Positions 2,707 to 15,913 of a DNA stretch of 64,000 bases are shown piece after piece; within the stretch, counting starts at the first letter, position 1, and each line of letters begins with the position of its first letter. Both the position numbers and the translations under genes were made by a program. The notes under the pieces were generated by a model. The model was not told the origin of the DNA, did no database searches, and saw only the letters and a program-made list of their open reading frames with translations. This stretch comes from Escherichia coli (GTDB lineage: Bacteria; Pseudomonadota; Gammaproteobacteria; Enterobacterales; Enterobacteriaceae), in NCBI RefSeq assembly GCF_050320075.1, contig NZ_CP190018.1. The stretch is one strand, 5' to 3'.

Positions 2707-2899
2707 TCCTGACTTGATGCCGCAATTTCGCCAAATCGACCTTGATTAACCTCCGTCCAGGTTCGATGGCCTTCTTAATACTGCTTATCTACCCGCCTGA
2801 TATTGTTCAAAAATAATACTAATCGCAGTTTGTGTTAAAACGGCGGGTTAGCTTTATGAGATTATTCTTATCGCCCCTTCAAGAGCTAAGCCACTGAGA

Positions 2900-2972
2900 G
2901 TGCCGGAGATAAGCGCCGGATGGGGTAGAAACCCTTAAGCCTGTGTCGCACAGACTTAAGGGTTTTCTTATT
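2900..2972 (+). ncRNA. candidate small RNA ending at an intrinsic terminator in the ydiH-sufA spacer; possibly RydB; 5' end not determined
   Basis: Orphan hairpin plus U-tract about 220 bp downstream of ydiH with no ORF; an sRNA is known in this spacer in K-12 but I cannot recall its sequence. Confidence 0.3.
2930..2972 (+). terminator. Rho-independent terminator: 10-bp perfect stem AACCCTTAAG/CTTAAGGGTT followed by TTTTCTTATTT
   Basis: Inverted repeat 2930-2939 / 2955-2964 then T-rich tract, read directly. Confidence 0.6.
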
Positions 2973-3189
2973 TCTGAACGCTGCACTTTTTTACCTATCT
3001 CTTAAATAGTCATTTTCAATACAACTTTTTCTTTTTCATCACAGCCTTAATGCTCCTTAGATAATAATCATTATCTAACAATGAGATACCTAATTCTTAG
3101 CGTGCCTGTTAACCCACACATCAGGGTCTATGCTTATTAAAAGCAGGAAAAAAGCATGTTTTACGGTAAAGCCCCTGCGTTTGCTGGGT

Positions 3190-3210
3190 TGAACTGATAA
3201 TCATTATCAC
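3190..3210 (+). promoter_or_regulatory. Fur box in the sufA promoter region
   Basis: GATAATCATTATC at 3196-3208 matches the 3' 13 nt of Fur consensus GATAATGATAATCATTATC; about 45 bp upstream of sufA ATG. Confidence 0.7.
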
Positions 3211-3254
3211 TAACATGCTGTTATACGCTGAAAGCGATGAAGTGAGGTAAATCG

Positions 3255-3623
3255 ATGGACATGCATTCAGGAACCTTTAATCCACAGGATTTCGCCTGGC
3301 AGGGCTTAACGCTGACACCCGCAGCCGCTGTCCACATCCGCGAGCTGGTGGCAAAGCAGCCGGGTATGGTCGGCGTGCGCTTAGGCGTGAAGCAAACGGG
3401 CTGCGCGGGCTTTGGCTATGTGCTCGACAGTGTTAGCGAGCCGGACAAAGACGATCTGCTGTTTGAACACGACGGCGCGAAGCTGTTTGTCCCGCTGCAA
3501 GCGATGCCGTTTATTGATGGCACGGAAGTCGATTTTGTTCGTGAAGGACTTAATCAGATATTCAAATTTCACAACCCTAAAGCCCAGAATGAATGTGGCT
3601 GTGGCGAAAGCTTTGGGGTATAG
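3255..3623 (+). CDS. sufA: Fe-S cluster A-type carrier SufA, 122 aa
   Basis: 122-aa ORF with C-terminal CGCGESF motif; first gene of suf cluster. Confidence 0.95.
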
Positions 3624-12708: not shown

Positions 12709-12948
12709 CCATTCAGGATGAGGCGATAAGCTTCATCCTGATATTCTTGCTTCAGTTGCGGTCCAGTTAATCATTCTAAATAACAACTGCTGAAATTATA
12801 CGAATTTCGGTATGTATTTTAATTTATAGCGATAATGTTATTTTTATTTTCTGCAATGAACGTCACAAATAATTGTCGCTTAAGTTAAATTTATTTCAAA
12901 TGATAATAAATATCAGTTCACTTATAATTTCTTGCTTTGTAATTTTAA

Positions 12949-13163: not shown

Positions 13164-15913
<2,750 letters not shown>

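Follow-up and report, generated by a model that had tools for sequence, protein, structure and literature searches.

The suf locus and its regulatory region

The DNA analysed here, a 64,000-nucleotide stretch of the Escherichia coli chromosome referred to below as the window, carries the gene order ydiJ-menI-ydiH-rydB-sufABCDSE. When a 601-nt query taken around the suf promoter was compared with 5426 complete E. coli genomes, it matched 5421, including two at 100%; sufA and ydiH are annotated beneath the matches. On its upstream side, the suf regulatory region is bounded by rydB, and an Rfam search of the region returned nothing besides this small RNA gene, a mir-1278 match (E = 0.1) being noise. 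Directly after rydB, on the same strand as suf, lies a hairpin followed by a T-run, CCCTTAAGCCTGTGTCGCACAGACTTAAGGGTTTTC (approximately 2929-2965). Together, rydB and the hairpin occupy 2873-2965 and stop about 30 bp short of the OxyR block; the hairpin was absent from the output of a simple terminator scan. The features on which the analysis rests are as follows, with negative positions counted from the sufA transcription start site (TSS).

2873-2933, plus strand: rydB small RNA gene (Rfam RF00118, 81.6 bits, E = 1.6e-19; annotated in K-12)
2994-3035, unstranded: OxyR-site block CCTATCTCTTAAATAGTCATTTTCAATACAACTTT, with CTAT-N7-ATAG (phylogenetic footprint; literature site far upstream)
3057-3075 (-166 to -148), unstranded: distal Fur-like motif TTAGATAATAATCATTATC, read here as the probable AT-rich 5' arm of an IHF site
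3068, unstranded: common E. coli single-nucleotide polymorphism (SNP) at a central base of the distal motif (window T, K-12 C, a single strain G)
3076-3088, plus strand: IHF core-like element TAACAATGAGATA, two mismatches to WATCAANNNNTTR (orthologous to a perfect core in most other Enterobacteriaceae)
3166-3193, unstranded: IscR type-2 site region (ORE-III) AAGCCCCTGCGTTTGCTGGGTTGAA, adjoining the Fur box (cross-genus conservation)
3189-3223, plus strand: sufA core promoter, with -35 TTGAAC at 3189-3194, a 16-bp spacer, -10 TAACAT at 3211-3216 and the TSS at A 3223 (hexamers read by eye; TSS from published offsets)
3195-3209 (21-mer 3192-3212), unstranded: proximal Fur operator TGATAATCATTATCA, a perfect 7-1-7 inverted repeat (matrix score, conservation, published tables)
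3255-3623, plus strand: sufA coding sequence, first gene of sufABCDSE (open reading frame list; sufA annotation in E. coli genomes)

Conservation was assessed on the sufA loci of 80 Enterobacteriaceae species, with spacer scores computed over 81 sequences. In the cross-genus alignments, the core promoter block was found to be invariant and the IHF core block to be conserved. Three elements of the region, ORE-I, ORE-II and ORE-III, reportedly lie at -236 to -196 (2987-3027), -156 to -127 (3067-3096) and -56 to -35 (3167-3188), respectively (Lee et al. 2004), and these positions agree with the conserved blocks once the TSS is set at 3223. The actions of Fur, IscR, IHF and OxyR at the suf promoter are taken from the literature. 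The OxyR site (ORE-I) lies far upstream of the promoter (PMC8593673), and IHF binds ORE-II and bends the DNA so that OxyR reaches the promoter (PMC8300815; PMC8593673; PMC7229158). At ORE-III, the binding of apo-IscR and that of Fur are mutually exclusive (PMC8300815).

A further block, CAGGGTCTATGCTTATTAAAAG (3122-3145; -101 to -80 from the sufA TSS), was the strongest conserved upstream block among approximately 72 non-Escherichia Enterobacteriaceae, above the OxyR and IHF blocks, and includes the quasi-palindrome TGCTT-N5-AAGCA at 3131-3145. Comparison of 3122-3143 by eye with NsrR, IHF, ArcA and marbox sites gave no convincing match. The block bears a weak resemblance to an NsrR half-site and was matched to no regulator reported for suf; NsrR has been reported as a suf repressor.

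The proximal Fur operator and the sufA core promoter

The original prediction described two Fur boxes in this region, one at the promoter and one further upstream, and both motifs are present where they were placed. The proximal one, GATAATCATTATC, was found at 3196-3208, inside the inverted repeat at 3195-3209. For scoring, a symmetric 21-bp Fur matrix was used that had been built from 18 sites in ChIP-bound, Fur-repressed promoters (PMC10219339 Table S6), with sufA left out. On this matrix, the proximal 21-mer (3192-3212) reached 20.2 bits, compared with a leave-one-out median of 18.9 bits for real sites. The site is a perfect TGATAATnATTATCA, and its sequence match is on a par with validated E. 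coli Fur sites. It was also the sole match in a consensus search of the whole window that allowed up to three mismatches to GATAATGATAATCATTATC. Furthermore, the box lies at a constant distance from the ATG in 79 of the 80 species loci, with 0-2 mismatches to the 7-1-7 consensus.

Published data converge on the same position. According to PMC10219339 Table S6, the sufA Fur site is centred at -53 when counted from the start codon and at -21 when counted from the TSS. The "Fur site mutation" published by the Kiley laboratory, carried in a reporter, is a 3-bp change, -26 ATA -24 to TAT (PMC12594620), whose target maps to the ATA at 3197-3199, inside the proximal box. Because both the -53/-21 offsets and the -26 to -24 numbering of the ATA fit, the TSS was assigned to A 3223, 32 nt upstream of the ATG; the operator accordingly spans -28 to -14, between the -35 and -10 elements. 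An information-theory scan by Chen et al. 2007 reported a single sufA cluster, of 21.3 bits with three sites in 31 bp, at -53, and this cluster is the proximal site, which is likewise tabulated as the sufA Fur site with ChIP-seq support (PMC10219339). Conserved, tabulated from ChIP and containing the 3-bp mutation, the proximal motif is the well-known, published and mutationally validated suf Fur operator, and on this textbook site the original prediction was correct. It is the sufA operator of Patzer & Hantke 1999, Lee et al. 2003 and 2008, Outten et al. 2004, and Mettert & Kiley 2014.

The window is identical to K-12 across 3149-3270, so there is no difference from the known E. coli operator at the proximal site; the closest changes relative to K-12, at 3148 and 3068, fall outside the box. 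Position 3148, located in an A-run between the 3122-3145 conserved block and the IscR site, is tri-allelic: the window carries A, three strains (K-12, Sakai and KO11FL) carry C, and CFT073 and 042 carry T.

Elsewhere in the window, the top match to the Fur matrix (21.0 bits) was AAATGATAATAAATATCAGTT at 12898-12918, situated 256 nt upstream of ydhY (a 208-aa open reading frame at 13164-13790). Its counterparts are a cluster that Chen et al. 2007 predicted at -255 of ydhY and, in KO11FL and 042, the ChIP-exo peaks assigned to the ydhY operon (Gao et al. 2023, PMC10164565).

The distal motif: sequence, alleles and Fur occupancy

The distal motif, TTAGATAATAATCATTATC, is 84% A+T. Compared with GATAATGATAATCATTATC, the 19-mer has five mismatches, and hence 14 matches out of 19, one fewer than the 15 that had been claimed for it. 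Its inner 5-1-5 core, ATAATCATTAT, is perfect, and it has an exact 12-mer, ATAATCATTATC, in common with the proximal operator (3064-3075 and 3197-3208). At up to one mismatch this 12-mer occurs three times in the window against 0.12 expected, and in 2000 dinucleotide-preserving shuffles of the 225-bp spacer, no 12-mer common to spacer and promoter arose, the longest shared stretch being 10. On these two grounds the repeat is real in this strain. Identity with the proximal box depends on position 3068, since the C found there in K-12 MG1655 changes the 12-mer to GATAATAACCATTATC.

Judged as a Fur site, the motif is only borderline. With the T allele of the window it scored 11.0 bits, which is lower than all but one of the 18 training sites and ranks fifth by the Fur matrix in the 64-kb window; the C allele of K-12 scored 9.3 bits and the G allele 7.7 bits. 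Shuffles of the AT-rich 225-bp spacer attained at least 11 bits in 5.5% of cases and at least 9.3 bits in 12%. Fur clusters typically have flanking sites at 6-bp offsets, and the motif has none (-5.9 and -18.3 bits at +/-6). Judged by its score, the shuffles and the 14/19 consensus count, the motif falls short of the level of validated Fur sites.

The allele at 3068 divides the species. An 81-mer with the T of the window was found in 1977 of 5419 complete E. coli genomes (36%) and the corresponding K-12 81-mer with C in 3248 (60%), while the aligned column contains T mostly in other Escherichia species and C mostly in other genera. As a Fur-like site, the distal motif is missing outside Escherichia among the 80 Enterobacteriaceae species and varies inside the genus, its counterpart being GATAAGAATCATTATT in E. 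albertii and GGTAATAATCATTATC in E. whittamii, with T, C or G at 3068 in E. coli strains. The GATAATAAT half is genus-specific and differs among E. albertii, E. whittamii and E. coli strains; across genera, the only part that is kept is CATTAT (3069-3074). The top Fur score in the orthologous spacers had a median of 6.3 bits, and at least 11 bits was reached in 7 of the 81 sequences.

Distal upstream Fur sites at ftnA reportedly counter H-NS (Nandal et al. 2010), and the suf region resembles multi-Fur-site promoters in that two Fur-like motifs lie within one regulatory region. In known Fur clusters, however, sites overlap or adjoin one another at 3- or 6-bp spacing within approximately 25-106 bp (Chen et al. 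2007), whereas the suf motifs are 133 bp apart (centre to centre, about 12.7 helical turns), and the distal one is weak, isolated and associated with no listed in vivo Fur peak. Two other relationships between the motifs were considered and rejected. Duplication of the promoter would account for the TAACA.TG that follows both motifs, yet other genera display a promoter-unrelated IHF consensus at the distal position. Fur-Fur looping between the motifs is disfavoured by the spacing of about 12.7 turns and by the lack of distal occupancy.

In vivo occupancy was evaluated from the Fur ChIP-exo peaks that Gao et al. 2023 (PMC10164565) published for nine strains of E. coli; the peaks were mapped onto the fetched loci. 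Peaks flank the proximal box in eight strains. For the strains below, the allele at 3068 is given together with the peak positions, counted in nt upstream from the start codon of sufA.

CFT073: T, distal motif as in the window (genome positions 1920706-1920721); peaks at 31-43 and 65-77
042: T, distal motif as in the window (genome positions 1933894-1933909); peaks at 30-42 and 63-75
Sakai: T, distal motif as in the window; single peak at approximately 66-78
KO11FL: C; peaks at 28-40 and 64-76
MG1655 and W3110: C; single peak at 63-75

In CFT073, 042 and KO11FL, the two peaks of each pair fall on either side of the proximal box, itself located 46-60 nt upstream of the ATG. The Sakai peak was calibrated against ydiE, because it had been published in an older coordinate version; the distance from the suf peak to the ydiE peak is 25,132 bp in Sakai, equal to that in MG1655 and W3110, and the sufA and ydiE start codons are 25,227 bp apart in K-12, compared with 25,230 bp in Sakai, which puts the Sakai peak beside the proximal box too. 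The thresholded peak lists for MG1655, W3110, KO11FL, 042, CFT073 and Sakai contain no Fur peak at the distal motif (180-195 nt upstream of the ATG), as follows from peak numbers that run consecutively to the next locus, ydiE. The published maps thus show, for the three strains with the distal sequence of the window, Fur at the proximal site only, in lists that are thresholded and come from one laboratory and one growth regime, so that a weak second peak could escape. In these data, the likeness of the T allele to a Fur box has no detectable effect on Fur occupancy.

An alternative reading makes the distal motif a real but weak auxiliary Fur site, chiefly in T-allele strains; Fur bound there would exclude IHF or loop to the proximal Fur and thereby damp OxyR/IHF-dependent induction when iron is plentiful. 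The exact 12-mer in common with the real operator, the perfect 5-1-5 core and the fifth rank in the window all speak for such a site, as do validated sites with similar half-sites (TAATAAT in fhuA, GATAACC in fecI; PMC10219339). Since real sites with TAATAAT or GATAAC half-sites exist, weak in vitro binding of Fur to the distal motif is possible at high Fur concentration, and binding of Fur and IHF there would be mutually exclusive, because the motif overlaps the predicted IHF arm. Against an auxiliary site stand a score that is exceeded by nearly all real sites and is attained by chance in the shuffles, the isolation of the motif from neighbouring sites at 6-bp offsets, its poor conservation with the weaker C allele prevailing in E. 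coli, a spacing that is out of phase for simple looping, and the absence of a listed ChIP-exo peak in the three T-allele strains. We regard an auxiliary Fur site as unlikely. Its most specific form, in which the IHF arm of T-allele genomes (about one third of E. coli, including Sakai, CFT073 and 042) doubles as a weak Fur site and gates OxyR-dependent suf induction by iron, is very unlikely. If it were true, competition between Fur and IHF at high iron would represent a strain-specific rewiring by a single SNP that thresholded ChIP-exo calling had missed.

The distal motif as the probable 5' arm of the suf IHF site

The position of the distal motif points to IHF, which had been named as the alternative to a second Fur site. 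The motif runs up to the base just ahead of the IHF core-like element, so that an AT-rich stretch lies 5' of that core and no more than about 20 bp from it. IHF wraps approximately 20 bp of usually AT-rich DNA 5' of its core (for example at lambda H'), and the IHF dependence of suf is established in E. coli K-12. In most loci from outside Escherichia, a perfect WATCAANNNNTTR is present at a constant offset from the proximal 21-mer (-116). This offset corresponds to 3076 in the window, where TAACAATGAGATA agrees with seven of the nine specified positions. The two core mismatches occur throughout Escherichia, while most other genera have a perfect core. Relative to the suf IHF site described as ORE-II (Lee et al. 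2004; reviewed in PMC8300815 and PMC8593673), the distal motif of the window abuts and overlaps the element, contributing a tract of very high A+T content just 5' of the core; the Escherichia element differs from that of most Enterobacteriaceae in its degenerate core and in a 5' arm that has drifted into a Fur-box look-alike, with T at 3068 completing the 12-mer identity.

On this comparative evidence, the distal motif is most likely the 5' arm of the IHF site and not a Fur operator. For the region as a whole, the explanation in which we have considerable confidence is that it is the known sufABCDSE regulatory region, with the proximal box as its single functional Fur operator and the distal motif as the 5' arm of the ORE-II IHF site. 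Against this explanation, the shared exact 12-mer exceeds what composition would predict (none in 2000 shuffles), and the Escherichia IHF core is degenerate. The degenerate core may reflect drift of the binding site for which the AT-rich arm compensates; speculatively, the very high A+T content of the arm may help to hold IHF affinity. Of the two Fur boxes originally envisaged, the proximal one is upheld. The distal one, with the cooperative or secondary repression proposed for it, is not supported, given its low score, its lack of conservation, the SNP at a central base and ChIP-exo maps in which Fur lies only by the proximal site. Fur at the proximal box alone, with the distal motif belonging to IHF, is the result that had been named beforehand as counting against a second Fur site; the suf architecture itself was already known.

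Two further explanations for the distal motif were weighed. In the first, the GATAAT at 3060-3065 would be the -10 element of a secondary promoter, ATCACA-16-GATAAT, directed toward sufA, with the Fur-like sequence as its own operator at -10 to +4. This exact pair (3038-3065) was returned by a consensus scan, and it is listed as a constitutive sigma-70 promoter of the rydB-sufA spacer in the RNA polymerase SELEX-chip survey of Shimada et al. 2014. The scan, however, yielded two promoter-like sites against 1.3 expected, which is chance level, and the SELEX-chip call is the best motif within a broad peak, under which the real promoter, 160 bp away, falls as well. In addition, the hexamers are not conserved (GATAAG in E. 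albertii, GGTAAT in E. whittamii, unrelated sequence in other genera), the only TSS in the consulted literature is the one 32 nt upstream of the ATG (PMC10219339; PMC12594620), and the Fur ChIP-exo lists contain no peak there, so that a secondary promoter is very unlikely. Equally hard to credit is a motif without function that owes its appearance to chance AT-richness, with IHF making its contacts elsewhere: its Fur score is inside the shuffle range, its 5' half lacks conservation and 3068 varies between strains, but CATTAT and the adjoining core form a conserved footprint at a constant distance from the promoter in most genera, and reviews put the IHF site between the OxyR site and the promoter (PMC8300815; PMC8593673).

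According to the literature, and in keeping with the sequence, the region operates as follows. Fe-Fur occupies the 7-1-7 box that separates the -35 from the -10 hexamer; it blocks RNA polymerase and occludes the adjacent IscR site, competing with the activator apo-IscR bound immediately upstream. Upon loss of iron or oxidation, Fur leaves and apo-IscR activates transcription. Peroxide stress adds activation by OxyR, which sits about 200 bp upstream, some 60 bp beyond the IHF site, and is brought to the promoter through the IHF bend at ORE-II. In the reading favoured here, the arm of that IHF site in Escherichia happens to read GATAATAA(T/C)CATTATC, the T allele giving the 12-mer identity with the real Fur box.

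Altogether, reading the sequence without other information recovers the known suf Fur operator, and the distal motif illustrates that a good-looking second Fur box can arise as a by-product of an AT-rich IHF site. The sole, small novelty lies in the common T/C SNP at 3068, which alters the Fur-likeness of the IHF arm. The ChIP-exo data argue against a regulatory effect of this SNP; if it had one, it would amount to a modest strain-level tuning of how iron and peroxide signals are integrated at suf.
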